Virus record (IMG/VR): IMGVR_UViG_3300021424_000044
Coordinates: 1-54,408 of that record
Length of the DNA: 54,408 nt
Origin: a virus
Lineage: Duplodnaviria; Caudoviricetes
Direction: 5' to 3' (one strand)
Positions 26,699 through 54,408 of the stretch are shown piece after piece (the stretch's first letter is position 1; every line of letters starts with the position of its first letter). Under the pieces are notes generated by a model. That model was not told the origin of the DNA and ran no database searches. It saw only the letters and a program-made list of their open reading frames with translations. The position numbers and the translations under genes were made by a program.

Positions 26699-26878
26699 AT
26701 GGACAAGGTGCTCGCATTTTTGCGCAGGGCAGTAAATAGAACTACCTTCGCGAATATCTTGATGTCGTCATTTATACTATTTACTGCGATAGGTGGCTTC
26801 CTTATAGCGCCGCCTATTGGTTTTATCGTCGCGGGAGTTACCTGTGGAGTTTTCGGATATCTGTTGGGCGCTGAGTAG
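26699..26878 (+). CDS. Small two-helix membrane protein upstream of portal (59 aa)
   Basis: Translated by hand: MDKVLAFLRRAVNRTTFANILMSSFILFTAIGGFLIAPPIGFIVAGVTCGVFGYLLGAE. Below the ORF-track cutoff. Such genes commonly precede HK97-type portals. Confidence 0.75.
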   Translation: MDKVLAFLRRAVNRTTFANILMSSFILFTAIGGFLIAPPIGFIVAGVTCGVFGYLLGAE

Positions 26879-28984: not shown

Positions 28985-31900
28985 ATGGAAGATATCAAAT
29001 TTAAGTCCAACTCTGGACAGTTCAATATTGACCAAGCACAAGGAATAGTGGAGTGCTTCGTCGCTGGGATAGGCAATAAGGACTCCGTCGGCGACATTGT
29101 CGTTTCTGGCGCGTTCGCAAAGAGCCTAGTCCGCAGAAAGCCAAGAGTTGTCTGGGGCCACAACTGGAATGACCCAATTGGCAAAGTCCTAGAAATTTAT
29201 GAAGTTCCGCCAAATGACCCACGGCTTCCACAAAAGATGAAACTTGCTGGCATCGGTGGACTATATGCCAAAGTGCAATTCAATCTGAATTCGGAAAAGG
29301 GTCGAGAAGCGTTTACCAATGTCGCGTTTTTTGGAGAAGAGCAAGAGTGGTCGATTGGCTACAAGACGCTTGATGCGATATATGACAATGGCAGACAGGC
29401 AAACATTCTGCGTGAAGTTGAGTTGTACGAACTGAGCCCTGTCCTTCACGGCGCAAATCAACTTACTGGAACAATCTCTGTAAAAACAGAGGAAGAAAAA
29501 AATCATATGATGCACATGGTGGGCGGCGGTTCAGCGGTTGCCGTCATAGAAAAGCCAAAAGGTCCAGTTGACCCATTTGCGCAAGGTGTTGCGCAGCCAG
29601 CAGACAGCGATAGAACCGCAGCGCTCGAAAGAGAACTTGCCACAAGAACTGGCGGCCCAGTGAAAATTATGAAAGCAAACGAAAGTTCGGTTGTTTTCAT
29701 GAAGCCAGGCAGGGGAGTTTTCCGTCTTGGTTATTACTTTGACGGCGAACAGTATATGTTTGGCAAACCCGAGAAAATGGGCGCGACGATGATGGTCGTC
29801 TCCCCAAGTTCTGGTCGCCCAACCTCAGGTCCAGGAATGCCAAGAATTCCAAATTTCCCTGCGGTTCAGGGCAAGCCATCTACATCAGGGCCAATCATTC
29901 CAGTTAAGTATGGGAATGATGCAGCAGCCACTGGGTTTTTTAATCTGGATGATGAAAAATCATTGACCGAACAACTGTCGGAGCAGCCAGATTTCGTTGA
30001 GCAACTTTCGGGGATTATCGGCTCTCTGCAGGGTTTGGTCAATCAACACCGCTCCGAAAAATCAGAGTTGATGATTCCATGTAAGCCACAGGACGCCTTT
30101 GAGACAAAACAAGCCCTTGACCCAGTGTTTGATTATCACAGAATTGAAACATACGTTACGGAAGATGGCATCGTAATCGCGTCGCCACTGAGTGGAGATG
30201 CTTACGAGGCGGTGGAAAATGCGACCAAATCACTCCTCGGAAGAATTGGCAGGAGTCTTGGTGGCGGGGGAAAAGTTAGGCGCGGCAGGGCCGCGCTAGC
30301 CAGAATCGAAGGGGTACTAGACCCCAGAAAACGTCGTGACTTTGATGGCGACGGACTCATCTTTGATGGCACATGGATGGAGCAACCAGACCCAAATCGC
30401 GCACAATCTGTCTATAGGCAAGTTTCGTTTCTTCGTTCTAGCGGCAAAAAGCCCAAGGAAGTCACTGATGCATTGACTGGGGACGAAGTTCCTCGTTTGG
30501 AAATTAATTTTACCAGAACAGAAAAAATAAAGATTCTTGAGGTTTTGGACAACGTAATCAGTGAAAATCAATTGACCGAAGACAATCCAATAACAAAGTT
30601 GAGAGATTCGATAAAGAATGCCAAGAAAGTTGGCGAACAACTTCAACCGCAACTTTTCGGACCAGACGGCGAAAGTTTGCTTGATGGCGCAAAAGCAGAA
30701 TTTGAAAAATTGCAACCAAGTTTTGAAAAGCATGGCGGCAAAAAACCTGGAACAAAGGGCAGAACGCCAACTGACATAATCAAAGATGTTTTGACCAATA
30801 AGCGTTATGAAAGAAGAAATATCGACAAGCGTGCCAAGGGCGGTCTTGGTGGCACCTCTGCAAGGCAGGGAACAGCGCAGGGCAGACGGACAAACATTGT
30901 TGGCTCCAGTAAGCCCCTTCCACGGCTCGGGGGTAGGCGCGACGGAAAGTTGAACGTAGACGATTTTATTGAAAAAGAATTTTTGCCATTTGATTGGTAC
31001 AAGATGTCTGGTGATGAAAAACTGAAATGGCTCAACAGCAAGCCAGATGGCGCTGGAAATGAAGGGACCAATGAGGAAGCGTTGATAGGTTTGCGGCCCA
31101 AACAAGAGGCATGGCGAAAAACGGTCGAGCAAATAACCAATGACGCGATTGAGCAGTCCCTTGAGGAAGAGGACCCTGCTGAAAATCTTAGGGAGCGCAG
31201 GCAAGCGGCGAGTGAGGACCGCGCGGAAAGAGCGGCGGCGCCACGACGCGTATGGGAACAGACCATAGAAAGAGAAGAAAAAGAAAAGGCCAAGGTCGAA
31301 GAAAAACGCCGCAAGATGCGAGAAGCGGCGGCGGCAAGAAAGGCAAAAGACGAAAAGCGCGAGCCTCGCGAATTCCAGTCTGACCCAGATAGACCAGACA
31401 CGATTGCACACAAGCGAACAGCGGAAAAAATAACTAGAGATTCGGACAAAATCAGAACATTTCTGGACGCGCAATCAGCAAAAGGAAGGGTTAATAAGAC
31501 TGTTGAGGATTTAATCAGCGATGGCCTTGATGATGTTGATGTGTTGATTGCTGACGAGGATGATGTTCCAACGCTTGAATCACTAAGTGAGGCACGAGAC
31601 AAAATTGAAGCGCTTATTGCGACACTCACCGACCCAGACTTGATTGAAAAAATCAACAAGCGAAGAAAGATAAATAAAGAAACTGGCAAAGAAGAAGATG
31701 AACTAGAAGTTGTCACAACCCTTAGCAATGCTGAACAACAGTTGATTCAAGGCTTGAAAACTGTTTCTGGCAGATTGTCCGAACACATCAGTGAATGGGA
31801 GGACAGAGAGTCAGACCTTGATGCCGAAAGGGACCTCATTGGCCGTGCTGGAAGGTCTGGTATCAGGGCGGAAGATTCTGGGTATGACTTTGATGAATAT

Positions 31901-32470
31901 GGTGGCGGAGATGATGGGGCTGATGAGGTAACCAACTTCAGTGTAAACAGGAATCCAAATTTGCTAAGAAGTGGCGGTTCTGGGGTCAGGCGAAGGGACT
32001 TGAACACAGTAGTGAATGAGGCTCGACAATTTCAAACAACACTGGCAAGAAGAAAAACCAGCGGGGGGTTGCGCTCTGGCGGCGGAGGAGACAAAACGCC
32101 AAGAACGGAAATAATTAAAGAGTCGACATGGTGGAGGGGTATCGATACGTCACTAAGGAGAGAAATAGATAAAGCAGAAACATCTGCCATAAAAGATGGT
32201 TTGACGCTTTTGCAACAAAAAATCTCTAAATATAAGGCTGGCGCATTTACGCCTGGCTCCAAGAGAACGAACGTAGGTTCAATCAAAATTACAGCCGATG
32301 AAGCAGACAAAATTCTTGACGCAGTTATGGCGGTAATTGATAGACAAATGACTGCTGGAAAAGGCGGAAGCGTAGGCAGCAGAGCAGAAATTTTTGCGGA
32401 ACTGCTTGAGGCTGTCTCGTCAGCAGCAATGTCAACGTTTATAGATAAAAGCGGTTCGCCCGCGGACTGA
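28985..32470 (+). CDS. HK97-type prohead protease (S78) fused to a ~950-aa extension
   Basis: GNKDSVGDIVVSGAF, VVWGHNW (His), WSIGY (Ser) and LYELSPVLHGAN motifs. The extension carries the DGDG cassette and 3 LRSxG motifs. Confidence 0.9.
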   Translation: MEDIKFKSNSGQFNIDQAQGIVECFVAGIGNKDSVGDIVVSGAFAKSLVRRKPRVVWGHNWNDPIGKVLEIYEVPPNDPRLPQKMKLAGIGGLYAKVQFNLNSEKGREAFTNVAFFGEEQEWSIGYKTLDAIYDNGRQANILREVELYELSPVLHGANQLTGTISVKTEEEKNHMMHMVGGGSAVAVIEKPKGPVDPFAQGVAQPADSDRTAALERELATRTGGPVKIMKANESSVVFMKPGRGVFRLGYYFDGEQYMFGKPEKMGATMMVVSPSSGRPTSGPGMPRIPNFPAVQGKPSTSGPIIPVKYGNDAAATGFFNLDDEKSLTEQLSEQPDFVEQLSGIIGSLQGLVNQHRSEKSELMIPCKPQDAFETKQALDPVFDYHRIETYVTEDGIVIASPLSGDAYEAVENATKSLLGRIGRSLGGGGKVRRGRAALARIEGVLDPRKRRDFDGDGLIFDGTWMEQPDPNRAQSVYRQVSFLRSSGKKPKEVTDALTGDEVPRLEINFTRTEKIKILEVLDNVISENQLTEDNPITKLRDSIKNAKKVGEQLQPQLFGPDGESLLDGAKAEFEKLQPSFEKHGGKKPGTKGRTPTDIIKDVLTNKRYERRNIDKRAKGGLGGTSARQGTAQGRRTNIVGSSKPLPRLGGRRDGKLNVDDFIEKEFLPFDWYKMSGDEKLKWLNSKPDGAGNEGTNEEALIGLRPKQEAWRKTVEQITNDAIEQSLEEEDPAENLRERRQAASEDRAERAAAPRRVWEQTIEREEKEKAKVEEKRRKMREAAAARKAKDEKREPREFQSDPDRPDTIAHKRTAEKITRDSDKIRTFLDAQSAKGRVNKTVEDLISDGLDDVDVLIADEDDVPTLESLSEARDKIEALIATLTDPDLIEKINKRRKINKETGKEEDELEVVTTLSNAEQQLIQGLKTVSGRLSEHISEWEDRESDLDAERDLIGRAGRSGIRAEDSGYDFDEYGGGDDGADEVTNFSVNRNPNLLRSGGSGVRRRDLNTVVNEARQFQTTLARRKTSGGLRSGGGGDKTPRTEIIKESTWWRGIDTSLRREIDKAETSAIKDGLTLLQQKISKYKAGAFTPGSKRTNVGSIKITADEADKILDAVMAVIDRQMTAGKGGSVGSRAEIFAELLEAVSSAAMSTFIDKSGSPAD

Positions 32471-32514
32471 CAAGTGATTTGTAATAGATTTCACCACCGA
32501 ATAAGTCTGTGAAG

Positions 32515-32520
32515 TATAAT
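32515..32520 (+). promoter_or_regulatory. -10 box TATAAT upstream of the 439-aa gene
   Basis: Consensus hexamer in an AT-rich intergenic gap, with an AAGGAG RBS before ATG 32604. Confidence 0.55.
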
Positions 32521-32603
32521 TTGTGAAAACGAATTTTAAGAAATACAACGCAAGACGGGTGCCTGTGGTATTGTCGTCTCGCAACACATAAGGAGCCATC
32601 ACA

Positions 32604-33923: not shown

Positions 33924-33949
33924 TCCGATTCCAGAAAAAGGCGCCTGCC

Positions 33950-36900
33950 ATGCAGGAACGTAAAGTATTAATTGCGCGCGTCATAAAGAGCGCTCGGGTT
34001 TTGCCTACATCGAAAGATACGCCGCAAGAGCGCATATCGAAATTTGTAGAGGCACAGAAGCAGGTTGTCGCGTACCCGTTTTCGCCAGAACTTTCGGTGA
34101 AGGCACTCGGGCAAGCACTCAAAAACAACAAGGACCCTTCTGCCGACAACAAGGAAAAACGCAAAAAGGCAGAATCCAATTTCACTCGTATCGGTGTTGC
34201 TGTTTTTGACCCAGATGCGACACCCAAAAAGGGCCAATACTTTGAGATAAGACCTCGCAAAGTAAATCAAGACGGACAACTTGGCGATGTGCCGAATGTT
34301 GGTTGGCTTGACCCACGAAAGACGGTCAAACCAGAAGATTTGGTTAACCAGGGCAAGAAGTTTCTAGCGTCGAAAAAGGGACCATCTGTAAGAAAGGTTC
34401 CAGCCAAGAAAAACCCGCGCACTGGACAAATGGAAGTTAAGGCGCTGGGCAGAACAATCGGCAGGGCCGCTGGGAACATCGGGCAAGCAGCCGCAAGGGC
34501 GGCTGGGGTTCTCGTTGATGCTGACGGCAAGTTCAGATGCCCGCCAGGAGTTCCAGCGGCCAATCAATTTACGGATGAAGTTGGAAGCAACTGTTTTGAT
34601 TTTTCCCCATTGGTAGCCCGAGCGTTGGTGAAAATCGCTGAAAAGTTTGGACATCAAATGATGGAAAAACTTAGCAAAGTTAATAACGCAACCCCCTTTG
34701 AGCGGAATGACGATTATCAACTTGTCCTGCGTAGTAGTGGCGGAAGACTCCGTGGCACAGTCCTTGGTCCAGAGAAAGAAAGACTTCGCGGAACACTTCT
34801 TGGTCCTGATGGAAAACCAATACCGCCGACACCACCACCGCCGCCAGCAACACCAATTGAGCCTTTTGATTTGATTGAGCGCGAACTTGAGATAGCAGAA
34901 AGAGACCTTGCAAGAATTGCTGGTTCTGGAGAAATAATTGACCCAGACACCTATGAAGAAAAATTTGAAGAAGCGTTTCGCGCCGCATACCCAGAATTGA
35001 CTGACGAAGAAATCAAGTCGCTTGCCAAAATCGCATCAGAGCGTGAGCGCATGAGAGATAAATTACGCGCAGAGCAGAGAAGCGCACTGGACCTAATAAG
35101 GTCGCTTGGAATAGACGTTGACGAAAGTGACCCAGTGTCAGTTCAAAGAGGAATAGCGCTGGCGTTGTTGAAAATGAAAGAGATGGGCTGGGATATCGAC
35201 CTTGACTCATATTTTGGTGAAGGATTTTCCGAAAATCCAGAGCGAGCATTACTCGCATACAGGAACACCATCGCAAATATGGCTTTGGATGGGACGCTTG
35301 ATGCGGTAAGGCAGGGGATAATTCACGGGATGAGCCCAGCCGATTTAGAGGTACTGCAAAGAAAATACGGGTCAAAATTTGAAGAAATGTTGGTGCAGGG
35401 GATAGTTGATGGCTCCAACCCTTCTGAAATTTTCCCTGATGACGAAAAAGCACAACAGTTGCTTGCCATGGGTCAAAGGTCTCTCGCCAAGGCTCAACAA
35501 TTTGAGACTGGCACCCTTTTGCAATTGATAAATGCAAGGCAAGAGAACCCCGAACTTACGCAAGATATAAAAAGTATTGTTCATGTTGCTTACGACCCCA
35601 GTGACCCGTTTTTTGGGGGGATGAGTATTGACGAAAAGGGCAATTTGCAGTTTCAGATGAATCTCGGCGGAATGTTACTGCTACACCCAGCCGCGTCGTT
35701 GTCGGATTCGGATTCATTCCTGTATGAACCAACTGGGACCGCTGGAACAGAAATAGAAAAATTGAAAAGAATAGGCGAAGTTGTAAGCGCGGAAAATAGG
35801 CACCGCCTGCTTGATTCATACATGGGGGGCCTAACGACATTTGCAGAACAAATATCTAAAATCCGCAACGGCGAAGGCTACATGACGCAGAGTCTCAACG
35901 ATTCATTTGGTGGTATGGCGCTTGGCCAATTCGTTGCTTTTCATGAACTGACGCATGGGCGCCAACTTTCCATGGCAAGGGAGATAATCAAGTCAAGAAA
36001 CCCTGGAATGTCAAACAGTGAGGCTATGGCACTGTTGGGTCAAATGATTTTTCAGGGCAGAAAATTCACGGATTCAAGAGGTGTTGACTTCGATTACGGA
36101 ACAATGATTACCGACCCGCAAGTGATGCTCACCGCATGTGCGAACATGAGGGAAATAGTTCATCACTTAATCGACAATAAAGTCGGAGGTACATACGGTC
36201 CCTCGCATTACTATTCCACGTTTTACTTAAACGAGGTCATGAGCAAAGCCAATAATTATTCTGACGTGAGCGACCTAAGAGACAGTCTCGTTATGCGGAA
36301 GCGAGAATTGGAGGCCGCAGGAAAAAACGAAGAAGACGCAGAATACAAGGGTCTGATTATGGCTATAGGGCGTATTGACGGTGTCCTAGCAAGTGCCACC
36401 GATGACGAAGACGCCCTATTAAAGATGCGCAGACAAGTAAACGAAATGGCTCAAGTTACATATTTGGAAATGCAGGCAGACCTTTCGGCTGCAGTGAAAT
36501 TCGGGCTCATAAAAGAAACTCCAGAAATAAAGGCATTCCTGGCTCCGCTATCGCTTGGCCAAGACCTCCCAGAAATAAAAAAGAATATTGTGCCGCCGCC
36601 GCCGCCAGCACCGCCTGGCCCACCACCAACGAGGCGAGATAAGTTGAGGGAATTGGCAGGGATAGGTAAACGAGCAAGAAAAATTTCGATGATGGACTTG
36701 CGAGACATGGTTGAGGGAATCGCTGACATAGATGAAGCCACTGATAAAACTGGTGGTCTTTCTGCTCACGACAGGACTCTCATGTCGGCAGGTATGGCGT
36801 CAGCCGCAAAATTTGATAGTAGGGGCTCTGCATCCAGATGGGGCAAACAAGTCAGAGACGCTGTGTTGCGCGACATGACAGAAAAACATCGTGAGGTGTT

Positions 36901-40963: not shown

Positions 40964-41415
40964 AGTCAATACTTGTTGGAAAACTTGAAAAAACGAAGGT
41001 TTATTACGTCGTTGATTCAATACACAAAAATGCTGACTGCATTCTGGTCGGCCAACTAGGCGATACCAAGGTGACAAATTTCTGGGAATTTATTGACTGG
41101 AATAAAAACATTCAAAAAATAACGAATACTAATTTTCACGATTACCTCTGGAATGGACATCAGTCCAAATCGGGTCCGCACTGGTATTCTGTTTTTGTCG
41201 AGAAATCTTTGCCAGTCGACCAAAATCTTCTTGATGGCACAGTTGTCAATGAGGATGTCTTGAGAAGGCGCCCCAAAGTACTCGAATACGAGAACAGAGC
41301 AATTGACTTCATGGTTTCACTTCAATCACAGGTCCCATCATCGAAGACGATGCAACACTGGGCGACAAGAAGAGTAAATAGGAAAAGAAAAAAGCGTGGC
41401 AAGAATTATGAATGA
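40960..41415 (+). CDS. Hypothetical protein (151 aa)
   Basis: GTGA overlap with the giant ORF stop. AT-richer than its neighbours. Confidence 0.65.
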   Translation: MKSILVGKLEKTKVYYVVDSIHKNADCILVGQLGDTKVTNFWEFIDWNKNIQKITNTNFHDYLWNGHQSKSGPHWYSVFVEKSLPVDQNLLDGTVVNEDVLRRRPKVLEYENRAIDFMVSLQSQVPSSKTMQHWATRRVNRKRKKRGKNYE

Positions 41416-44130: not shown

Positions 44131-47100
44131 GACAATACGCGGTACTAAAGAATGTGGTTCGCGACGTTAATTTTGGCGTCGTCGTAAAGTCCGATGGAAA
44201 CCTTAAGTTTTTTGGTTGGTCCCAAAAAGCAGTGGAGTGGGCAAACTGGGCAAATTCCAACAATGCCGACCTAAGTCAACTTCCGCCGAATATCTCTGTG
44301 GGTGAATTCAGGGGTATGTCCGACGAGACAATGAAGAGCATTATTCTGAATTCCCAAGATGCCGTCGCTGCTGGTTCGGCAACAATCAGCACCAAGACCT
44401 TGGCCTTTGATTTGGGGCGCGAGCACAACCCAAATGCGTCAAAATTCCCCTCTTTTATTGATTCGCCAATTTCTGGAGACTGGGTCTCAAAGCATAAGTC
44501 AATAAATTTCAAGGCGCATAACTTCAGAAAAGAAGTTGTACAGAATGAACTTGCCCTAAGGGTCCGCATTCACGAATTGGCTTTCAATAACGAGACTAAA
44601 CAATTTGTTTCAAAGCCCAATAAAATTACCGCAACCCACACTCGTTCAGAAATTCAAAAAAAGATGTCGCGCGGTGCGGAGCGAAAATTCGGTAAGCAAA
44701 TTGTTGAATACACGAACAAAGAAATCCTGAAAAACTACGTTGCCCCAACAATCAAGAGAGATACGCTGGGGAAATCCACCAAGGAAATTCTTGATACCTA
44801 TACAAAGGCAAGGCTCGGACGAGCGATTGGACGCGCTGCTGGTAACGCGATTCGCGGAGCAGCGTCAAGCAGGACAGCAAGAGGTGTTGCACGAAGATTT
44901 ATTTCTGGTACTCTCGACCCACGCAAGAGAAGAGACCATGACGGAGACGGGTTGATTTTTGACGGTACATGGCGGGAAATGCCAGACCCCAATAGATTTG
45001 TTTCTGCGCCGCGTGCCAGCGAAACCTCAACGGGCATGTTGATGGAGGGTACTCCTGGTCTTCGACGCCGCGGCGGAATGAACCTTCCAGGTGGTGGCGG
45101 TGTTGGAATTAGAAGTACTGACCCAGAAGAAAATAGGAGAGTAGAAGACAGCCTAAGAGCCCAAGATGAACTGCGACAACAATTTACGGCAGAAGTAGAA
45201 AAAATAGTCAATACACTAAGGGATGCTGGTCTTACTATCGAAAAACCAAAGCGTGGAAAGCGCGAACGAAGACTTTCTGACGGCACTTCCCTAAGAAGTT
45301 CTGGTGCAACCGCGAACGAGCCGCCACGTGCCGCCGCTGCGGTTCAGATGGCGTTTGACACGCGAAATAGTCGCAAAGCATCAAAGATGACGTATGACCC
45401 GCAGACGAATTCTGTTGAAGTCACATATAAAGACGGAAGAATGAAAAGATTTGACAATGTCCCATACGATGAAGCAAGACGCGCTGGGGCCGATGACGCA
45501 ATAGACAGACTCATTACAGACATGGAAACTGGCCGCATAGGCAAGGAATCCAAAGAGCCAATTATGGGCATTCGTTCATCTGGCAGAAGACCCAAACCAG
45601 ACGTTGACATGACAGATATGACGCCAGAAGAAAGAGAAGCGAATAGACCTAGTAGCGTTTCAGAAGATGAGTATCGTCGCCGAATTCGACGTGATGTCGA
45701 CCGAAGTTTGCGCAGGGCCGACGAAGAAGGTTTGCGTTCGTCTGGGAAATATACACGCGGGAACATGTCGCGCCTCACCCCTCAAAGCCAAAGTCGCGTT
45801 GACAACGCAAAAGAAATGCTTGATTCTGGAAGAGTTGACAACGTCAGGCAACTGACGACCCAGGTCGAAGGTCTTGATTTACGTATTTCCAGAAATCAAA
45901 ATTATCTTGATTCGCTAAGGGACACGCTTCGCAGGTTGGGCCCTGGTGACAAGCGCCGCCCAGATACAGAAAAAGATTTTGAACGCGCCGAGCAAGAACT
46001 TGGCGTTGATATGGCGATTCGCGACCTAACTCAGCAAAGACTCAAGAAAATCGACAGGGGCCCAAAGCCAGGTGGTTTGCGCTCTAGTGGTAATCGAAAT
46101 ACTGCAGAAAAACTCCCTGACGAAGGCGGAGAACCTGGTCGCTATGACGACATGCCGAGCGTTGAGGACGCTGTTAAAAAACTTACCTCTGGCGACAGAA
46201 TGTCAGCAGACGAACTCGAATATCTGGAGGAGGTGACGGACAGAATCCTCGATGACCCAGACACACCAGAAAATATTCGGGATTCAATGTTGGATTTGAA
46301 AAATCAAATTGCTGCACGAAGAAAGAATGGCGGCAATACGCTTCGCTCCAGTGGTGGAGGGGGAAGACGACGCGCAACCACGCCAACCCCAGTGGACGTT
46401 GAAGCATATCTCAAAGACTGGTTGGAAAATCGAAATCGCAATCGGCCATATATGCCTGGACAAGATACTGGCCAAAAAACACCTGTCGATGATATCCCAG
46501 ACCTGTCCGACGAAGCGATTCGTGACGAAATCGACAGAATTGAAAATCGTCCTCGCGTATATGACGGCAACGTTACTGCTGCTCGCATGGACGGCGAGCG
46601 CAAGGCGGCGCTGGAAAGAGAATTGCAAAGAAGACGGAGAGGCGGAGGCAGAAGAAAGCCAACTCAAAACACTAAGCGCCCGTTCTCGAGCGAACCAAAA
46701 CCAGAGACCAACAGACCACTTTCGACGGGCAGTAACCAGCGCGTTAGTAACTGGTTGAATTCACCCGAAGGTAGAAGGAGTGTTCAGACCCTTAGGTCAT
46801 CTGGGGCAGGCCGTGAGGAATTTGGGTCGACCGCAACTGGTGGTTTCAAATACCCCAATGCGTCGCAAAGAAAGCGAATATTCAACAGCAAGGAAGACGT
46901 CGACGATTTCATACAGGACCTCAAAGACGATTACGAGGCTCGCCGAAGACGATTAGAACAAGAACTTGGCTTTGAAGATGGCTACTACATGGACGACGAA
47001 GAACTTATTGAAAAGTTCATGGACGACTACGGAATGTCGAGAGGCGAAGCGCGCCAAGAAATGCGCAAATACAGACGTAATTACGACCTTCTAGAAAAAG

Positions 47101-50100
47101 AACAGGAAATTCACGAGCGTCGTCTCGATGAACTTGATGCAGAGAAATCAAGGCTTCCACACCAGCAGGAAATTGACGACCCGATTGAACTCGACACAAA
47201 TGGTTTCCCCAAAAATCCAGAACAGACGGAACGTTTTAACGAACTGATGGAGGAGGGGAATCCAGTCTTCAAGGCCCGCAAGAGGCCAACACGAAAACCC
47301 AAGGAAACAGAAGACAAACGAGACCCAGAAGTTGAAGACCTCATTTCCAACATTATGTCGTCCACCGCTGGTCCAAGCGAAGGGTCAAAGCGTTCACTCC
47401 GCTCTTCTGGCGCTGGCCCAGAAACCCAGGATAGACCAGAAATAACATCAATTACGAAATTGATTGAGAATGACTACGACAGCATGCTGCAGGGTGGGGC
47501 CGACATGGATTCTGGCATGAGAGAAGTCGCTAGAACGGTTGGACTTAACGAAAAACAAACTGAAAAGTTGTCCAAGATTGCTTACACCTTGGACAGACAA
47601 AGGGACGAACTTCCGCAAACCGCAAGTGACCAAAAGAGGCTCGTTGACGGAATCATGGAGGAAAGATTTGGCAATCAACCACTGAATGACGACCAAAAAG
47701 CGTCAGTGCGGGAGGCTCTGTCGGCATTTATTGCCTACGCCGCGAAGAACGCAAAAGCAGAAGCCAACGGAAAAGCGAAGCCACGCCGCGACAGCGAGCC
47801 AGATGACATTCAGTCGATGATTAGAAGATTGCAGAGCGGGCAGCAACTGAGTGATGACGAACTCGACATGCTTGATGAACTGAAAAACATCGTCAGAGGG
47901 AAACGGAATGTAACCGAAGACGAACTTGATGCAATGGCTGACCTGGAAAAGGAAATACAAAGGGCACGACGCGCACCACGTCGCCAATTCGAACCAGCAC
48001 AGCAGGCTCTCTTTTCACGAGGAAACGTAAGAACGGATGTGCCGCTAAGTTCCCGTAGGTCTCTTGCAAGAACCGAGCGTGCCGCTAAACCACGAGGGAC
48101 AACGCTCCGTAGCGCTGGTGGAGATAAAACAAAAACACCAAGAACACCAGCACCAAAGAGTGGCGCTCCGCGCGGTGTTGGTGCTGGTCCTGGTGGCAAG
48201 GCTGGCCACGCAAGAATGACAAGAACGTATGGTCGTGACAAGAAGGGCAGTGACGGAAAGGTATTTGACTCCCTCACACCAGAACAGAAGGATGCCGTTA
48301 AGAAGACTCTTGTCGAAGAGGTCAAGCCAGCATTGGATAAGAAACTAAAGGGTTTCTTCAGTAAGTATTGGAAAGCCAGAAGCGAAAGAGGCTCTAAGAA
48401 ACAAAGCCTTTTGGCTGTCCGTAGAAGAGCAAAGGGTGACGCTCGCGGAAGATACGACAAAGTCGCAGAAGACACCCCACTTGAGTCGGCAGATATTTAC
48501 GAGATGCTTTATCGACTTGACGGACAAGTGTCCGAAGGTCTACTTGAAAAGTTTGAAGTGTCCGATAAGGACTCGCGAGAATTAAAACTCACCGAAGATG
48601 GTGAGGCCAAGGTGAGCGCGGCCAAGAATGGATACACAGTTCAGCAAAGAGCCTTGGATGACGCTCAGACAATCATGAACATGATTGAAGACGGGGACTT
48701 CTCCGCTCTTGAGCACTTGCATCCTGCCACCAAGAAGAAGATTGCTGACGTAATCAAAAAGAACGGCGGCGAGGTTCCAAAAGGTTGGATTGATTCAGAG
48801 TCATCAGTCGCTGGTTGGGCTGGCGGAGAAGGACGAACAAAGGCCCCAGACGCAATCGACCTAGAGAAAGAACGTGGAATAGGGAAAAAGAAAAAAGAAA
48901 AGCGACTCTCCCTGTTCCAAAGACTGCGCCGCGTCGACCCAGAAAGAGAACGAAAAGTTGAATTGCGCGCTGCAAGAAGACAGGGCCGACTCCGCGAGGG
49001 TATTGAACTTGACCCTGACCTACAGTTGAAGCGACGTATTCTTCGTGGCCGCGCCATGAAGAGAACTTTTATGTCGAGGTTTAGGAAGAACCGCGACCCA
49101 GAAACGCTTGCAACAGACATGAGGGAAAGGCGAGAAGAGGTTGCAGTTCTTAAAACAAATGCTACGGATGGAAAGGTTGAGGTTACTGACGGTTATGTCG
49201 ACCTTTTGCACGCTCTTGACCAAGGCTTGATTGGGATTAATGAAAAGAAGAGAAAGGGAGCAAGCGAAGAAGAAGTTGAAAGCGAACATAAAGCGTTGTT
49301 GCGCAGACTGTGGGAAAACTCGGGCTTTTCAGAAACGCCAATCCAACTGAAAGAAGATGAGGTTAAGTTACTCCTTGATGCTGGTTGGCAACCCATCATG
49401 CGTGGCACTGGCCACGAAAAAGTCAATAGCGAAACCTATGTTGAGCAATTCATCACCTCGGAAGGACGATTTATCCCAGGTCAGGGTGGCTCCGCGTTCG
49501 GAATCGGCGAATACTTCTCGTACCCAGGCGAATGGGGTAGTTACCATGGCGCGAATCCAACCGACAGACACACGCTCGTGGCACTCCTGCCCCCAACATC
49601 AACAATTGTCAAGCAGAGTGAAATTGCACGTGAACATGCAAATCTCGGCGCCATCACAACAAAAATTTCGGACGCATTCAAAATAATCGGTGGTCGAGAT
49701 GCGACCAAAGCCATGGAGCCAGAAGAACTGGTCGCCGAAATAGACAAAGCGGTCCCAGACCTGTCATCCGACGCATCGCGAACTGGTCAGATAATTAAGC
49801 AATTACGCGACAGGCTTGAGGCATTGTCAAAACTGCCCAAAACAAACGACGAAGAACGCGGTGCAGTTCAAGCACAAAAGGAAAAGATTTTGAATTCGCT
49901 TGACTATCTACAGCGTTTTTCCAAGCAACGCTCGCCAGAAATGATTGCACCGCTTATCGGTGTTGACGCCATTGACACAAACGAGAATGACTCCTCCATT
50001 AAGGACCCAATTCTCCTTCACAACAGAACGTCTGTTGCGGTTCTTCAGGTACCGACAACCTACGACCAGGGCTTGGCATTGGTTTCTGGCCCCAATGGCG

Positions 50101-50993
50101 AACGAAGGCCCAAGGCGTGGCTTAAGTGGAAGCGGAAGAGTGTTGAAACACCAGAAAGAGAAGCACCAAGAAGAAGGTCGCCACGTCGCGCAAGACGAGC
50201 ACAGCCGCCAGCACCCCAGCCAGCAGCAACCCCAAATCCGCCGACGCCAACCCCAAGTACGCCAACGCCATCCCCAAGTACACCAACGCCACCCACTCCG
50301 TCACCAGACGGCAAGGGCGCAAAAGCACCAGTTGATGTTTCGTCATGGACTTCAAGCAGACCACAGTCGACTGGCTCAAATCCAGCCACACTGCTTACTG
50401 CGCCAGACGGAACCCAGTACTACACCAAACTGCCAAAAGGAACCCCAGACGACAAGGACAGAATGGAAACAGAAGCCCTTGCATCAGAACTTTATAAGTT
50501 GGCTGGGATTCAAAGCGCCGATGTTCAAATGGGGACCCGCAATGGTCAGCCAGTGACCATTTCAAGAATGGTGCAATCGCGTATGCCAAATTCGCAGGGT
50601 GACCAAGACGAAGCACTTAAGGGTTTTGTTGTGGATGCGTGGCTCGCAAACTGGGACGCACCGCTTAACGACAATATCAAGATTGATAGCAATGGCAACG
50701 CAGTGAGACTCGATGTTGGCGGCTCACTTGATTTCAGGGCGCAAGGCGCACGAAAAGGTAAGGCATGGGGCAACACGGTTGGTGAAATTGAATCAATGAA
50801 AAAAGGTGGAACATACGATTTCAAAAAGATTACGGATGCTGCAATCAAGCAGCAAGCCAAAGCACTGGGTAACGTAACTGACACAGATATTAGGGCAACA
50901 GTTTCCAGAATTGTCTCTGACCCAGCAAGGGCAAAGGCACTTGCTGATACGCTTATTGCACGACGAGATGACATAGTCAAGAGGTATGCATAG
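44127..50993 (+). CDS. Giant modular protein (2288 aa): DGDG cassette, KTSC-like, helical repeats, ART-like, C-terminal HipA/PI3K-like kinase
   Basis: MTYDPQTNSVEVTYKDG...FDNVP is KTSC-like. IMRG...GSAFGIGEYFS...LHNRTSV is ART-like. GSNP...YYTK...EALASELY...DAWLANWD...N...RLDVGGSL is kinase-like. Eight [L/I]RS[S/A]G motifs. Confidence 0.75.
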   Translation: MRQYAVLKNVVRDVNFGVVVKSDGNLKFFGWSQKAVEWANWANSNNADLSQLPPNISVGEFRGMSDETMKSIILNSQDAVAAGSATISTKTLAFDLGREHNPNASKFPSFIDSPISGDWVSKHKSINFKAHNFRKEVVQNELALRVRIHELAFNNETKQFVSKPNKITATHTRSEIQKKMSRGAERKFGKQIVEYTNKEILKNYVAPTIKRDTLGKSTKEILDTYTKARLGRAIGRAAGNAIRGAASSRTARGVARRFISGTLDPRKRRDHDGDGLIFDGTWREMPDPNRFVSAPRASETSTGMLMEGTPGLRRRGGMNLPGGGGVGIRSTDPEENRRVEDSLRAQDELRQQFTAEVEKIVNTLRDAGLTIEKPKRGKRERRLSDGTSLRSSGATANEPPRAAAAVQMAFDTRNSRKASKMTYDPQTNSVEVTYKDGRMKRFDNVPYDEARRAGADDAIDRLITDMETGRIGKESKEPIMGIRSSGRRPKPDVDMTDMTPEEREANRPSSVSEDEYRRRIRRDVDRSLRRADEEGLRSSGKYTRGNMSRLTPQSQSRVDNAKEMLDSGRVDNVRQLTTQVEGLDLRISRNQNYLDSLRDTLRRLGPGDKRRPDTEKDFERAEQELGVDMAIRDLTQQRLKKIDRGPKPGGLRSSGNRNTAEKLPDEGGEPGRYDDMPSVEDAVKKLTSGDRMSADELEYLEEVTDRILDDPDTPENIRDSMLDLKNQIAARRKNGGNTLRSSGGGGRRRATTPTPVDVEAYLKDWLENRNRNRPYMPGQDTGQKTPVDDIPDLSDEAIRDEIDRIENRPRVYDGNVTAARMDGERKAALERELQRRRRGGGRRKPTQNTKRPFSSEPKPETNRPLSTGSNQRVSNWLNSPEGRRSVQTLRSSGAGREEFGSTATGGFKYPNASQRKRIFNSKEDVDDFIQDLKDDYEARRRRLEQELGFEDGYYMDDEELIEKFMDDYGMSRGEARQEMRKYRRNYDLLEKEQEIHERRLDELDAEKSRLPHQQEIDDPIELDTNGFPKNPEQTERFNELMEEGNPVFKARKRPTRKPKETEDKRDPEVEDLISNIMSSTAGPSEGSKRSLRSSGAGPETQDRPEITSITKLIENDYDSMLQGGADMDSGMREVARTVGLNEKQTEKLSKIAYTLDRQRDELPQTASDQKRLVDGIMEERFGNQPLNDDQKASVREALSAFIAYAAKNAKAEANGKAKPRRDSEPDDIQSMIRRLQSGQQLSDDELDMLDELKNIVRGKRNVTEDELDAMADLEKEIQRARRAPRRQFEPAQQALFSRGNVRTDVPLSSRRSLARTERAAKPRGTTLRSAGGDKTKTPRTPAPKSGAPRGVGAGPGGKAGHARMTRTYGRDKKGSDGKVFDSLTPEQKDAVKKTLVEEVKPALDKKLKGFFSKYWKARSERGSKKQSLLAVRRRAKGDARGRYDKVAEDTPLESADIYEMLYRLDGQVSEGLLEKFEVSDKDSRELKLTEDGEAKVSAAKNGYTVQQRALDDAQTIMNMIEDGDFSALEHLHPATKKKIADVIKKNGGEVPKGWIDSESSVAGWAGGEGRTKAPDAIDLEKERGIGKKKKEKRLSLFQRLRRVDPERERKVELRAARRQGRLREGIELDPDLQLKRRILRGRAMKRTFMSRFRKNRDPETLATDMRERREEVAVLKTNATDGKVEVTDGYVDLLHALDQGLIGINEKKRKGASEEEVESEHKALLRRLWENSGFSETPIQLKEDEVKLLLDAGWQPIMRGTGHEKVNSETYVEQFITSEGRFIPGQGGSAFGIGEYFSYPGEWGSYHGANPTDRHTLVALLPPTSTIVKQSEIAREHANLGAITTKISDAFKIIGGRDATKAMEPEELVAEIDKAVPDLSSDASRTGQIIKQLRDRLEALSKLPKTNDEERGAVQAQKEKILNSLDYLQRFSKQRSPEMIAPLIGVDAIDTNENDSSIKDPILLHNRTSVAVLQVPTTYDQGLALVSGPNGERRPKAWLKWKRKSVETPEREAPRRRSPRRARRAQPPAPQPAATPNPPTPTPSTPTPSPSTPTPPTPSPDGKGAKAPVDVSSWTSSRPQSTGSNPATLLTAPDGTQYYTKLPKGTPDDKDRMETEALASELYKLAGIQSADVQMGTRNGQPVTISRMVQSRMPNSQGDQDEALKGFVVDAWLANWDAPLNDNIKIDSNGNAVRLDVGGSLDFRAQGARKGKAWGNTVGEIESMKKGGTYDFKKITDAAIKQQAKALGNVTDTDIRATVSRIVSDPARAKALADTLIARRDDIVKRYA
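50200..50310 (+). repeat. Pro/Thr-rich linker repeat (PTPTPSTPTPSPSTPTPP)
   Basis: Imperfect repeats of acgcca(a/t)ccccaagtac separating the ART-like and kinase-like domains. Confidence 0.8.
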
Positions 50994-50995
50994 TC

Positions 50996-51379
50996 ATGGA
51001 TTACTCACAGGGTATTAAAGCGATGGAGTTGGCAGAAAAAGAATTGCTGGAATTAATGGACTATCCCCCATTCAGCGAAATCGACGGCGGTGACGAAGTC
51101 GAACCCGACTGGGGTTTCCCGTCAATCAGTGAACGTGGTGAGGATTTGGCGGAGGCAATCCGCGATGCCATTGACCTCGTACGGACCGAGCAAAAGCGTC
51201 TAGAAAAAGCGGGCAAACGAATGTATGACATGGATGGCGCCATACTCGCTAAAGCATTTACAGATGTAGAGAAAGAATTTGCCGATGACCTTGACGAAGC
51301 ACGCTTGTACCGAAAGCGTTTTCCAAAAACCAGAATTTCTGCCCTGATGCAGGCGTGGAAGCCAAAACAACAAAAGTAG
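50996..51379 (+). CDS. Small acidic hypothetical protein (127 aa)
   Basis: Starts 2 nt after the giant ORF stop, GAGG RBS. Confidence 0.7.
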   Translation: MDYSQGIKAMELAEKELLELMDYPPFSEIDGGDEVEPDWGFPSISERGEDLAEAIRDAIDLVRTEQKRLEKAGKRMYDMDGAILAKAFTDVEKEFADDLDEARLYRKRFPKTRISALMQAWKPKQQK

Positions 51380-51388
51380 GTTTGGCTC

Positions 51389-54097
51389 ATGGCCGATGAG
51401 CAGTCCGATACAAATTCTCGTGTTTTTGCCATTCGCGCATCACAGTGGATTGGTTGTTCTGGAGCGCACAAACACGAGGGTAAGTGGATGCCGTGCGAAA
51501 CGCATGAAGAACTTCTAAAAATTTCTGGTGAGGCAGAGCCAAAAAAGAAAACTGCTTTTGAAGATTTGTACAAAAGATACAACACGCGAAAAGCAAAAGG
51601 GAAAAAGAAAAAGCGCGGTTGGGAAAATTTAAGAGAATTAAGACCGCTTGGCGGGTTTGCAACACTTGAGGGCGGCGGCATAGTTTCTGCCCCAATAAAT
51701 TCAACAATTTACTCTGGTGGCGTTAAGTCATACATTCCTGGCGTAACTCCAAGAGATAATGACCCAGACGTTTTCACAGACATCGAATCGGCGCGCAAAA
51801 GAAGCAGGATGCTGGGGTGCATTGGGGTGAGAAGAATGCCTTCTGCAAGCGGAAGAACAGTTTGGATGCCGTGTACAACGAATACCGATTATGCGCGCCT
51901 TGCTGGAACGACATTTCTTGGCAGAAGAGGTCAGCAAGAAGCACAGCGCAGAATGATTAGAACGATTGTCAGAAACGAATTCCGTAACGAAGAGCGAAAC
52001 AGAAGAATTAGAAAGAAGTCACTGTTCGAGGAGTTGGTCCAAGACAAGAGTCTACTTGGAAGAGCCATAGGCAGAATAAATTCACCTGGTTCTTTGTCAA
52101 GAAGACTAAGAAGAGGAATGTCTGCTGGCGGCAGAATTGAAGGAGTACTTGACCCCCGCGTGAGAAGAGACCTTGATGGCGACGGTCTCATTTTTGATGG
52201 CACGTGGAGAGAAATGCCAGACCCAACCAGGGCGACAACCGCAGCGTCGAGAGTGCTACGAAGTTCTGGTGATGCGACACCACCAGAAATGAAATGGTGG
52301 AAATCTAAAACAGACAACACCTGGCTGACGCCAAACAGAATTGGCAAAGGGGGGAAACTCAAAGCCTCCGAAATACTCAACTTTGACAGAGTGCGCTTGC
52401 GAAAAGACAGAGACGAACAAGCCGAAGTTCTCGGTGTATCACGAGAAGTCATAGACGCCATGCACCAGCCAGGCGCATCATTGGACCCAGAGGATGCAGA
52501 CAAACTCTCCCTAAGAGCACTTGAATTGCACCCAGCGCTCATTTGGGGCGCATCATGGCTAGAGCCAGATAGGAAAAAGAAAACCAAAATACGAAGAACC
52601 AAAAGTTCACGCGGCAAGTACGGCTCGCTTGACGGAAGACAGGTTCGCGCCAAAAAACGTGGCGCTGGGGAATTGGACGACAGGGACAAGCGCGTTCTTG
52701 AAATGCGCGCAAACGGCGCAACAATGCAGGAAATAGCGGATGAACTCAAAGTAACAAAACAAAGGGCTGACCAAATTTACAAGAGGGCGGTTAAAAGAAA
52801 TACGCAAGCAGACATCAGTAGAGATGGCAGCATCCTTCGCAGTCAGGGGACAAATCTTGCGCGCGGTGACGGGATGATTCGCCGAGACGAACGTGGAAAG
52901 CCAATTCGTCAGGCAGACAGAAGAAAAGAAACCCTTGAGCAGACAATAGCCAAACTCAAAGAAATGGGTTTTTCTGATGAAGAGATAAATCTGCTTATGA
53001 CTGGTGACCGAAACACACCTGTCGATACGACCACAAGAGATGTTGATACCTCAGAGGCAAGAAGGCTTCGGTCTTCTGGTCGAGTCAATTCGCCAGTTGG
53101 TCTAAGGTCTGGCGGCTTCAGTATTAGTCAGATGGAAATAACGCCGCCCAAAGAGTGGCCAGAATCGTCAAAAACACACATGCTCAACTGGGCAAATGGA
53201 AGACCATCTTTCAATATCCCATACTCAATAAGCCAAAAACACAAGCGTGATGGAAGTCTTTCCGACAGAGAATGGAAGACGCTACTTAGGTTCTACAAGC
53301 AATGGGGCCCAGAAAATACATCTGGGAGAAGATTGCGTTCTGGTGGCGGTGGAAACATCACTGATACATACACCAATGTTGGTGCAAGAAGAATGGCACA
53401 AATCATTCTTGACAGAGTAAAGCCGCAGTCCAGAAATAAGCCAGTAGGTAAAAGACGGCACTTCCACATAATTGGTCCAGGCGGAATGGGAAAGACCACG
53501 CTGCGCGAGTTTCTAACGAAAGAAGGGGTAATACCTGGCGACGACGAAGCGGCGCTTGTTGACCCCGATTTCATCAAAATGGGAATTGTTGGGTATGAGG
53601 GTGGAAAAGGTTCAGAACTTGTTCATAGGGAGTCGGCACATTCGGCAACACATACGGTGAATGACGCGCGAAAAGAGGGCATGGACATAATCACTGAAGG
53701 AACTGGATACAGACTGCACGACTACAAAACGACAAGTGACAATACCTATGAGAAGGTGTTTCACATTCCGTACCTGCCATACGATGAAGCAGAAAGGCGA
53801 GTCCGCGTAAGAAATGCACAAGGAAAAAGACAATTGCCAGTTAGTCAAATAAGGGCCAAGGGTGCTGGCCTGTATGGATTCATAACCGACCACCTGAGAA
53901 GAGGCGAAGCGCAAACAATGTATATCTGGGACATGGACGTTCCAGAAGGGGCTGCGCCAAGGGTCATCGCAAAAATAGAAGATGGTGTTTTTCAGGCTTT
54001 TGACGAACCAAAATTCAAGGCTTGGGCCGTGCAGCACGGTGGTAGGGGTGGGGATTCCGATATCTCCTGGTTCAGGAGAAACTTCCCTTCTAAATAA
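51389..54097 (+). CDS. Modular protein (902 aa): two DUF3721-like repeats, DGDG cassette, two HTH-like modules, C-terminal zeta-toxin-like P-loop kinase
   Basis: IGCSGAH...WMPC and LGCIG...WMPC. QAEVLGVSREVI and ATMQEIADELKVTKQRADQI. IIGPGGMGKTT...VDPDFIK...VHRES...DIITEGTG. Five LRSxG motifs. Confidence 0.75.
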   Translation: MADEQSDTNSRVFAIRASQWIGCSGAHKHEGKWMPCETHEELLKISGEAEPKKKTAFEDLYKRYNTRKAKGKKKKRGWENLRELRPLGGFATLEGGGIVSAPINSTIYSGGVKSYIPGVTPRDNDPDVFTDIESARKRSRMLGCIGVRRMPSASGRTVWMPCTTNTDYARLAGTTFLGRRGQQEAQRRMIRTIVRNEFRNEERNRRIRKKSLFEELVQDKSLLGRAIGRINSPGSLSRRLRRGMSAGGRIEGVLDPRVRRDLDGDGLIFDGTWREMPDPTRATTAASRVLRSSGDATPPEMKWWKSKTDNTWLTPNRIGKGGKLKASEILNFDRVRLRKDRDEQAEVLGVSREVIDAMHQPGASLDPEDADKLSLRALELHPALIWGASWLEPDRKKKTKIRRTKSSRGKYGSLDGRQVRAKKRGAGELDDRDKRVLEMRANGATMQEIADELKVTKQRADQIYKRAVKRNTQADISRDGSILRSQGTNLARGDGMIRRDERGKPIRQADRRKETLEQTIAKLKEMGFSDEEINLLMTGDRNTPVDTTTRDVDTSEARRLRSSGRVNSPVGLRSGGFSISQMEITPPKEWPESSKTHMLNWANGRPSFNIPYSISQKHKRDGSLSDREWKTLLRFYKQWGPENTSGRRLRSGGGGNITDTYTNVGARRMAQIILDRVKPQSRNKPVGKRRHFHIIGPGGMGKTTLREFLTKEGVIPGDDEAALVDPDFIKMGIVGYEGGKGSELVHRESAHSATHTVNDARKEGMDIITEGTGYRLHDYKTTSDNTYEKVFHIPYLPYDEAERRVRVRNAQGKRQLPVSQIRAKGAGLYGFITDHLRRGEAQTMYIWDMDVPEGAAPRVIAKIEDGVFQAFDEPKFKAWAVQHGGRGGDSDISWFRRNFPSK

Positions 54098-54148: not shown

Positions 54149-54250
54149 ACGCAACAATTATTTTCTGTATCTTTGATACCTAAGGGCTGGGTGCTTACCT
54201 GAGCCATGAAGCAACAAGTCCAAATACTCACAAGAAAGCAAGTCAATCAC

Positions 54251-54408
54251 ATGTCTACTCAAGACACCAGCAGATTGAACGAACTGCAGACAGCACTTCG
54301 TTCAAAGATGGCGGACAATAAGGCAATCGCCGATTCGTTCCGCGTCGAAGACGGCACCGTTGTCGTCTCTTCGGCACAAAAGAATGCGTTCGACAAGAAC
54401 ATGTCCGA
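54251..54408 (+). CDS. 5' end of probable HK97-type major capsid protein (coiled-coil delta/scaffold domain)
   Basis: MSTQDTSRLNELQTALRSKMADNKAIADSFRVEDGTVVVSSAQKNAFDKNMS..., open to the window end and following the head cluster. Identity is inferred from position and helical character only. Confidence 0.6.
   Translation, partial: MSTQDTSRLNELQTALRSKMADNKAIADSFRVEDGTVVVSSAQKNAFDKNMS

Follow-up and report, generated by a model that had tools for sequence, protein, structure and literature searches.

A leader-and-core module shared by the protease and large proteins of an uncultured myovirus head gene cluster: a candidate tag for incorporation into the capsid interior

The stretch of DNA analysed here (the window) is the whole of the 54.4 kb IMG/VR virus record IMGVR_UViG_3300021424_000044, a piece of an uncultured myovirus genome of roughly 150 kb. 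In its head gene cluster, a prohead protease fusion and two otherwise unrelated large proteins, of 2288 residues (orf2288) and 902 residues (orf902), share a module that consists of a basic leader, a basic linker and an acidic core with the signature DxDGDG. The module is conserved in the same genes of related genomes, occurs once per protein, and lies ahead of a series of short L[RA]S-type motifs that change in concert from one genome to the next. We put forward tentatively, as the best of the readings considered below, that it is a tag for incorporation into the capsid interior, where it would dock its carriers during assembly.

One module in three otherwise unrelated proteins

A sequence-only reading of the window had proposed that a 30-residue cassette is shared by these three open reading frames (ORFs). 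The three peptides translate exactly as given there (Table 1), and the basic leaders that were said to precede them are present, at residue 423 of the protease ORF (numbered from a TTG start), residue 227 of orf2288 and residue 220 of orf902; a further leader, KALGRTIGR, begins at residue 164 of a 2337-residue giant encoded in the same cluster (34439-34465). What the cassette understated is the length of the shared unit: BLASTP among the three proteins recovers a sole common segment of about 77 residues (54-59% identity, E 1e-14 to 3e-16), so that leader and basic linker belong to the unit along with the core. With E-values of this size over the module alone, the sharing is not a matter of chance. 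The leader (K-x-LGRxIGR) is basic and amphipathic, the flanks are strongly basic (KVRRGRAAL..., PRKRRD), and the core is acidic, following in the clade the pattern D-x-[DN]-x-[DN]-G-h-I-F-D-G-T-W-x-E-x-P-D-P.

Between any two of the three 30-residue cores, 25-26 of 30 residues are identical, and the codons for these identical residues differ between copies in 17/25, 10/26 and 12/26 cases. Codon divergence of this order rules out recent duplication or gene conversion of the module; judged by their codons, the copies are old and have been kept by selection at the protein level. Self-cleavage at an Asp-Pro bond, as in FrpC-type modules, was also considered and rejected: the D-P upstream of the loop is not conserved and becomes N-P, D-R or is absent in distant carriers.

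The 2337-residue giant has, behind its leader, a variant, DADGKFRCPPG...FTD...C (34517-34594), in place of the DGDG core. Leader and Cys variant are strongly conserved in 6/6 orthologues, ahead of their first site. The element with its two cysteines (DG-x-x-RCP-x-G...FTD...C), which we take to resemble a thrombospondin-type-3-like Ca2+ repeat, is also seen in a 690-residue ORF (about 42480-42570, residues ~145-172: RDGVSRCPEGYQYGGRFTDNRFSTCG); BLASTP draws no link between the 2337- and the 690-residue proteins.

The module precedes a series of co-varying sites

In all three window proteins the core lies upstream of every LRSxG motif, as the sequence-only reading had noticed. The core begins at residue 460 of the protease ORF (TTG numbering), with motifs at 491, 1002 and 1037; at residue 270 of orf2288, with seven LRS[SA]G and one IRSSG between residues 389 and 1327; and at residue 261 of orf902, with motifs at 290, 483, 560, 572 and 649. 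Only 12 residues separate core and first motif in the protease fusion (30431), and 10 in orf902 (LRSSG at 52256). LRS[SGAQ]G occurs 19 times in four proteins when 0.07 occurrences are expected (2000 residue shuffles, maximum 2), and in a six-frame translation of the window the LRS.G counts are 1, 13 and 7 for the three + frames and 0, 0 and 1 for the three - frames.

We compared the window (G000) with the five longest related IMG/VR records (G001-G005). All five carry the module in the same three gene types, namely the protease fusion, a giant of 1900-2600 residues and a protein of 880-1020 residues with DUF3721, sigma and zeta-like domains (15 matches at E <= 3e-22 in a profile search); the protease fusion itself has 13 IMG/VR relatives at 46-79% identity. 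Conservation of the core region reaches 0.83-0.88 against protein means of 0.47-0.73, and in orf2288 the 30-residue segment that starts 8 residues before DxDGDG ranks 17/2259 (0.88 versus a mean of 0.47, six orthologues). The G004/L008 lineage has DANRDG, DVDRDG or DANNNG instead of DGDG, and all three keep the pattern D-x-[DN]-x-[DN]-G. This pattern is present in 24/24 aligned copies from the window and its relatives, as are an invariant D, G, T and E behind the loop. The conserved feature is thus the calcium-loop pattern rather than DGDG as such.

The same order is found across the clade. A word-indexed database search with the module profile matched 130 proteins, the best 120 of which comprise, by Pfam, 37 S78 fusions, 39 DUF3721/sigma-r4/zeta-like proteins, 3 DUF3626 proteins and 41 domainless ones; all 120 are metagenome-derived, and the few names among them are automatic. 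A regular expression finds the core in 117 of these 120, never more than once per protein. Counting generic L[RA]S-type sites in the 117 proteins, we find 6 before the core and 226 after it, where a uniform distribution would place 62.7 before. The claimed order of core and site series holds well beyond the window. In 88 proteins a site follows the core, and the first one lies a median of 22 residues from the end of the core (G-[TS]); in the other 29 the generic pattern shows none, and variants such as GLQS and GLSS are visible.

The sites themselves change between genomes, at all sites together: they read LRS[SG]G in the window, G002 and G003, GL[AR]S[SRT]T in G001 and G005, and LASGR in G004. 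We also located the predicted junction between delta domain and mature capsid protein, which we set by the conserved S-I-G-E-x-F just after it, at about residue 100-115; the scaffold domain of HK97 is given as 103 residues (PMC10275583). The junction reads ETR-SIGEAF in the window lineage, SLRSE-TIGEAF in another and FK-SIGDEF in others, and is thus similar, not identical, to LRSSG. Because of the concerted change between genomes and the likeness to the capsid junction, the L[RA]S motif is likely to be the substrate site of a co-evolving S78 protease, perhaps cut before the Ser. If the sites of orf2288 were cut, 9 modules would result.

A tape-measure-like protein of 1618 residues has LRSGG at residue 704, and LLKSSG near it, in a Gly/Ser/Pro-rich stretch, and its orthologues show LRSSG and LRSGG in G002 and GLASST in G001, in each case the genome's own site motif. 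Since it is the genome's own motif that appears there, the tape measure may be cut by the same protease, keeping in mind that in a low-complexity region such matches could arise by chance.

Finally, the module genes of the window share a location. The portal gene is the start of the head module that holds them, and since the capsid gene starts at the window end, every one of them lies between portal and capsid genes: the translation of the last 200 bases agrees letter for letter with the start of P0253, a 454-residue capsid protein of the HK97 family (2427 database relatives at E <= 1e-20), and in G001 (91% complete) a Phage_capsid gene directly follows the orf902 orthologue. The expectation that matches to the module would be confined to this interval is borne out for the strong ones (G001-G003, where capsid genes could be located) but not for weak, diverged copies, which fall outside it.

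A disordered module with a probable calcium loop

An AlphaFold 2 (AF2) model of residues 1-494 of the protease fusion, numbered from ATG 28985, has a mean predicted local distance difference test score (pLDDT) of 53.8, with two small domains that reach about 80. The core region (blocks 441-470) scores 50-62 and its flanks less than 50; a helix at 404-422 covers most of the leader (415-423), the basic linker is partly helical at low confidence, and the core region shows a two-residue bridge between L-I and Q-P. A model of a tandem-core family (5 sequences) has a mean pLDDT of 45.5, with nearly all core residues below 50. Neither of these two models yields a fold for the core. Given the low confidence at core and flanks, we regard the module as a linear motif that would need an ion or a partner; going by the models, it looks like an intrinsically disordered element of some 75 residues.

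The ion might be calcium. That DxDGDG is a known type of calcium-binding loop had been noted at the outset, and the pattern is indeed kept throughout the aligned copies, but the loop is not a canonical EF-hand or dockerin: position 12 is T/S, prolines flank the loop, and no profile matches. Pfam searches with the 24 module copies return no EF-hand or dockerin at E <= 10 (one DUF4936 match has E 0.031), and profile comparison with the PDB shows a non-significant resemblance to dockerin and ALG-2/EF-hand loops (E 0.33-2.4). The Dx[DN]xDG calcium-binding loop, as outlined by Rigden et al. 2011 (PMC3123361), is found in EF-hands and dockerins. The core resembles it in having the linear D-x-[DN]-x-[DN]-G with two hydrophobic residues behind it, and differs in that it is without helix-loop-helix, without Glu/Asp at position 12, and alone in a disordered, proline-flanked segment. 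On this pattern, the core is probably a single Ca2+-binding loop. A complex prediction that paired P0253 (residues 16-454, alignment of 62 rows) with the module (alignment of 24 rows), made with no controls, gave ipSAE 0.00 in each of two runs, where the mark is 0.32, and speaks neither for nor against binding.

The core occurs in other phages

A full HMMER scan over 1.84 billion representative proteins returned 141 clusters at E <= 1e-3, 39 at <= 1e-10 and 0 at <= 1e-30, mostly large virus proteins. Their wider core pattern is D-x-[DN]-x-[DN]-G-h-[IV]-x-[DE]-G-[TS]-x-x-E, present in 132 of the 141 representatives and present more than once in 67. The first copy lies within 100 residues of the N-terminus in 66 and the last within 40 residues of the C-terminus in 8; a leader-like element stands upstream in 24/141, and 99/141 are at least 800 residues long. 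At the DNA level, the strict pattern DGDGDG-x-I-x-DGT is found in 21 stretches of 19 viral contigs, and in 6 stretches of 596 Gb of prokaryote genomes. By Pfam, the carriers we sampled include Phage_portal+MuF+GNAT fusions, ART-PolyVal proteins, PI3/4- and HipA-like kinases and a protein of 3566 residues with the order DUF3721...NUDIX...zeta...HTH.

The gene neighbourhoods of these carriers are varied. The three complete carrier genomes have 7, 2 and 1 core copies: the 7 copies are spread over three adjacent giants, and the single copy belongs to a jumbo phage. A three-core giant adjoins a major head protein gene, a carrier of 326 residues lies 2.3 kb from one, and the jumbo-phage carrier adjoins an RNA-polymerase-beta-like gene, while other carriers examined have neighbours that are glycosyltransferase-like or without assignable name. 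There are also small carriers: among P0110, P0121, P0128, P0132, P0134, P0061, P0090 and P0093, some join the core to Lys/Ala/Pro-rich, histone-H1-like tails, and others combine two tandem cores with a C-terminal domain that by eye is peptidoglycan-binding-like. On its own, judging from this distribution and its sequence, the core looks like a generic Ca2+-loop linear motif.

Deposited phages gave no megablast match for the portal-protease region and no tblastn match for the 56-residue module, the N-terminus of a 3355-residue G001 protein or the tandem-core protein; the low-complexity filter was on in these searches, so that absence from deposited phages is weak evidence. With an ART polyvalent protein as query, tblastn matched ART domains only, and the Dolichospermum phage region to which one such match pointed contains no core. 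A related-locus search from two distant carriers found one weak locus for one and none for the other, and an ESM Atlas search with the module gave no usable match.

A loading handle, and what else the module might be

The reading we favour, as a tentative one, is that the module works as a loading or retention handle. Three features of the clade suggest it: each polyprotein has a single module, that module comes just before the first site, and protease and cargo genes of the head module both encode it. The reading is also supported by the distant carriers, which are proteins expected inside capsids (Phage_portal+MuF+GNAT, ART-PolyVal, kinases). The module would bring or hold the protease and the cargo polyproteins inside the procapsid as it assembles. 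Cleavage by the S78 protease would follow at the L-[RA]-S-x-x sites, which usually start 10-25 residues behind the core, and would free the downstream modules (helix-turn-helix/sigma-r4, zeta-like kinase and others) as separate internal proteins, which would probably be ejected. After the first cut, the protease itself would keep the module as a C-terminal tail, as in the HK97 protease. An additional cut at the 'K-site', another element of the sequence-only reading, is conjecture; the start of the leader lies inside a predicted helix.

Several observations weigh against this reading. Three weak matches (about 1e-6) lie outside the portal-capsid interval, namely a diverged module at the N-terminus of a 3355-residue G001 gene, 25 kb downstream of the head module, and a diverged core in DUF6321 proteins just after the capsid gene in G002 and G003. 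Sites also occur where the DGDG core is missing, in the 2337-residue giant and the tape-measure-like protein. Across the 18 other carrier records, the capsid family PF05065 is found in 3, the portal family PF04860 in 1 and S78 in 0 above cut-off; in the complete carrier genomes each of the three is found in 0/3. Portal-fused polyvalent proteins repeat the core 4-5 times between domains, and because these repeated cores lie in proteins already fused to the portal, they are hard to reconcile with targeting alone. In other phages the core stands at the end of small proteins of 90-124 residues, some with a hydrophobic segment, and two such C-terminal carriers are encoded immediately upstream of a major tail protein gene. 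Lastly, the core is absent from related cultured Gordonia phages, even though these have effector-like genes between portal and capsid: in Gordonia phage Gray (MK279853.1, 9166-26714; Bendigovirus; our locus L075) terminase and capsid are about 43% identical to those of the window, and the cultured relatives encode an RNA ligase, a VIP2-like ART and a 971-residue HTH protein there. The idea of a common address tag for the procapsid thus fares well in the clade, where the module sits in head-module genes, precedes the sites and marks protease and putative cargo alike, but less well where the core occurs outside the interval or beside other head gene families. As carriers differ in their head genes, repeat the core or are small, any docking partner must be generic rather than one capsid, portal or protease family.

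The diverged copies deserve description in their own right. The DUF6321 proteins with a diverged core (DHDGDGVINDGTPDEKPAP) are those of G002 (L044:8629-10209) and G003, and P0107; in the DUF6321 protein of G001 the core pattern is not matched. Giants of 3200-4250 residues with a diverged leader and core near the N-terminus (residues ~8-137) are G001 L039:836-10903, P0044, P0049, P0070, P0094 and P0113. Four GLRS[TR]T sites are present in the G001 member, the 3355-residue giant, for which Pfam, PHROG and PDB searches gave nothing, as did PHROG for a carrier of 4249 residues; that such N-terminal-core giants might be enzymes packaged in the virion, for instance an RNA polymerase, is no more than a guess.

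If the partner is to be generic, it might be an ion or another copy of the core. Under this alternative, which we consider rather unlikely, the core is a putative Ca2+-dependent switch or self-association motif, which, as long as Ca2+ is available (in the virion and in the environment), would make interior proteins rigid or cross-link them and, in the low-Ca2+ cytoplasm after ejection, would allow them to loosen, come apart or unfold; alternatively, by like-with-like pairing, it would cluster cargo with the protease fusion. The loop pattern kept in all aligned copies, with the invariant D, G, T and E behind it, the multi-copy carriers (67 of the 132 core representatives, and 7 copies in one complete genome) and the fact that dockerin and EF-hand loops are the only PDB resemblances, albeit non-significant, are all consistent with such a switch, and a function that is partner-free or like-with-like fits well with a core kept across unrelated head gene families. 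However, the spacing of later ligands is unlike that of a canonical EF-hand (T at position 12, prolines both sides, no Pfam match), one complete jumbo genome has a single copy, and a switch leaves unexplained why the clade has exactly one copy, always ahead of the first site. A broader version, which strikes us as improbable, extends this to unrelated tailed phages and makes the core (D-x-[DN]-x-[DN]-G-h-[IV]-x-[DE]-G-[TS]-x-x-E-x-P, 15-20 residues) a universal Ca2+-dependent latch of capsid-interior proteins: inside the virion, where Ca2+ is plentiful, it would either bind another copy of itself or fasten polyvalent effector modules, protease and portal extensions to one another, and in the Ca2+-poor cytoplasm it would let go of them, so that they could be ejected, unfolded or activated; the window's clade would have adopted it as its one loading handle for polyproteins cut by the protease.

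The order of core and sites lends itself to yet another interpretation, to which we likewise give little credence, namely that the module is a protease exosite or composite processing signal that draws S78 onto the polyproteins, with the K-S bond maybe cut too. One module immediately upstream of the first site of each polyprotein would suit this role, as would its presence on the protease fusion, which must cut itself free, the position of the core at domain junctions in other phages' polyvalent proteins, and the start of the leader (K-S-L-L-G), which resembles capsid junctions such as F-K-S-I-G and E-T-R-S-I-G. The idea is weakened by carriers whose records have no S78 above cut-off, by co-varying sites without a core in the 2337-residue giant and the tape-measure-like protein, and by a core that stays the same beside a site motif that changes between genomes; nor does AF2 show confident packing of the core on the protease domain, which is itself poorly modelled. 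Least probable of all, and very unlikely in our view, is a DNA-associated element, whose basic flanks and cation-bridging acidic loop would attach interior proteins to the packaged DNA, along which they would line up and with which they would exit. Strongly basic flanks, and the histone-H1-like tails of small carriers in other viruses, point that way; against this, the proteins would need to enter the procapsid before DNA packaging, an acidic loop is unusual as a DNA ligand, and the flanks are not basic in many distant carriers.

Relation to known systems

The capsid targeting sequence (CTS) of phage T4 is about 10 residues long, sits at the extreme N-terminus and has no acidic DxDGDG loop, and the T4 protease site is L/I-x-E. 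The CTS, found on IPIII and others and removed by the prohead protease gp21, is, as our module would be, a short peptide N-terminal to the maturation site, one type of signal on several unrelated head-interior proteins, and the order of core and then site is that of the CTS type, with cutting of the carriers and their location in the head being what we infer for the window. Unlike the CTS, the window modules lie 220-450 residues into their proteins, behind folded domains; there is no sequence similarity, and the window has an S78 protease and L[RA]S sites. Duda, Oh and Hendrix are said to have described, in 2013, a C-terminal encapsidation tail on the HK97 maturation protease gp4. The parallels here are an S78-family protease with a non-catalytic tail and a capsid protein that carries an N-terminal scaffold (delta) domain and makes up the procapsid; a cut at the first LRSSG would leave the module as the C-terminal tail of the protease. 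Differences are that the window's tail is also on cargo proteins and that its protease is fused to about 680 further residues. Encapsulin cargo-loading peptides, which load different cargo into an HK97-fold shell, offer a similar case of a short shared peptide on different cargo proteins; they are C-terminal, hydrophobic or Gly-rich, and without an acidic loop.

Polyvalent proteins of phages and conjugative elements, as described in the main text of Iyer et al. 2017 (PMC5512222), are very large multidomain proteins encoded in head or packaging modules; they often carry a MuF or portal fusion, and the prediction is that they are packaged and injected. The distant core carriers (Phage_portal+MuF+GNAT, ART-PolyVal, kinases) correspond to this definition. 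As for having several effector-type domains, orf902 has Sigma70_r4, Zeta_toxin-like and DUF3721 domains, while the two window giants, unlike typical polyvalent proteins, are almost without recognisable domains and are divided by a repeated protease-site-like motif. The main text of that paper, supplements aside, contains neither 'DGD' nor 'calcium' nor the core motif, and the motif is also unmentioned in the MuF toxin paper. In phiKZ and SPN3US, going by abstracts (PMC5694885, PMC7411985, PMC10052503), the prohead protease cuts many head-interior proteins at a short consensus and removes N-terminal propeptides; there, in contrast to the window, protease family and motif are others, the substrates are separate proteins rather than polyproteins of more than 2000 residues, and the abstracts mention no shared Ca2+-loop module. 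Among the listed papers on DGDG-type motifs none concerns phages, and matches to DGDGDG with phage are irrelevant, supplements not being covered by this search. There is no Pfam family for the core, and whole-protein PHROG scans of carriers give no match over the module. Peptides common to several head-interior proteins, polyproteins cut by a protease and Ca2+-loop motifs are, then, known kinds of thing; new, as far as our searches reach, are this module, its rule of one copy per polyprotein and the way in which the site motif shifts in concert between genomes.

Gene layout of the window

The window record has no end repeats that we could find (IMG/VR class 'linear') and a CheckV completeness estimate of 36%. 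Table 1 lists its features. Between the tail sheath and large terminase genes lies a PAPS-reductase-like gene (19711-20853, - strand; phrog_2302, E 8.5e-78). The protease fusion matches the head maturation protease family phrog_80 (E 3e-26) and has about 980 residues in addition to its S78 domain: behind the N-terminal S78 domain come two small predicted domains, the leader-core module, a variable charged region and a C-terminal domain of ~130 residues that is conserved in an alignment of 38 homologues. Its start is probably ATG 28985 rather than the TTG at 28961 of the ORF listing (1169 residues), because the window's own database protein has 1161 residues.

The 439-residue protein that follows occupies the position expected of a scaffold gene; it is Cys-rich at the N-terminus, contains about 80 Asp/Glu residues in a run and lacks any LRSxG site, and a weak PepSY-like similarity (E 0.002) is below cut-off. 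Neither the 2337- nor the 2288-residue giant has a significant Pfam domain, PDB sequence searches of both are empty, and orf2288 has no match in PHROG either. Two HExxH strings in the 2337-residue giant, HELTH and HEFGH, could be metallopeptidase-like, as in polyvalent proteins, with no profile match to back them. The domains of orf902 are separated by LRSxG sites, and together they look like a packaged set of transcription or host-takeover factors.

Table 1. Positions of the module copies, site motifs and genes discussed in the text
Feature	Coordinates	Strand	Description
Module copy 1, protease fusion	30227-30394	+	leader KSLLGRIGR, basic linker, core IEGVLDPRKRRDFDGDGLIFDGTWMEQPDP at 30305-30394
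Module copy 2, orf2288	44805-44990	+	leader KARLGRAIGR, basic linker, core ISGTLDPRKRRDHDGDGLIFDGTWREMPDP at 44901-44990
Module copy 3, orf902	52046-52225	+	leader KSLLGRAIGR, basic linker, core IEGVLDPRVRRDLDGDGLIFDGTWREMPDP at 52136-52225
LRSxG sites, protease fusion	30431-30445, 31964-31978, 32069-32083	+	motif match
LRSxG sites, 2337-residue giant	34727, 37547, 39245, 39872	+	motif match
Tape-measure-like ORF, 1618 residues	8789-13645	-	
Tail sheath gene	14943-16421	-	
Baseplate-like gene		-	among tail genes
Large terminase gene	25350-26717		
Portal protein gene, 670 residues	26886-28898	+	Pfam Phage_portal E 4.7e-53; PHROG portal families
Prohead protease fusion, 1161 residues	28985-32470	+	Peptidase_S78 at residues 27-178, E 4e-10
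Acidic protein, 439 residues	32604-33923	+	after protease gene
2337-residue giant	33950-40963	+	four LRSxG sites and leader
Three smaller ORFs	between 2337- and 2288-residue ORFs	+	
2288-residue giant (orf2288)	44127-50993	+	module and LRS[SA]G sites
127-residue ORF	between 2288- and 902-residue ORFs	+	
902-residue protein (orf902)	51389-54097	+	2 x DUF3721, module, Sigma70_r4 HTH, Zeta_toxin-like P-loop domain (Pfam)
Major capsid protein gene, 5' end	54206-54408	+	ATG 54206 or 54251; cut by window end

Implications

How large head cargo is loaded, held and released is known in detail for a few model phages only. If the module is indeed a portable tag on protease and cargo, it would amount to a testable loading rule for a large and abundant group of uncultured phages, and could be used to load HK97-type capsids with foreign proteins. 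In addition, sister genomes whose site motifs have changed in concert offer a natural experiment on protease specificity. Beyond the clade, polyvalent effector proteins carry the core widely enough to suggest a general, hitherto unannotated element in them.

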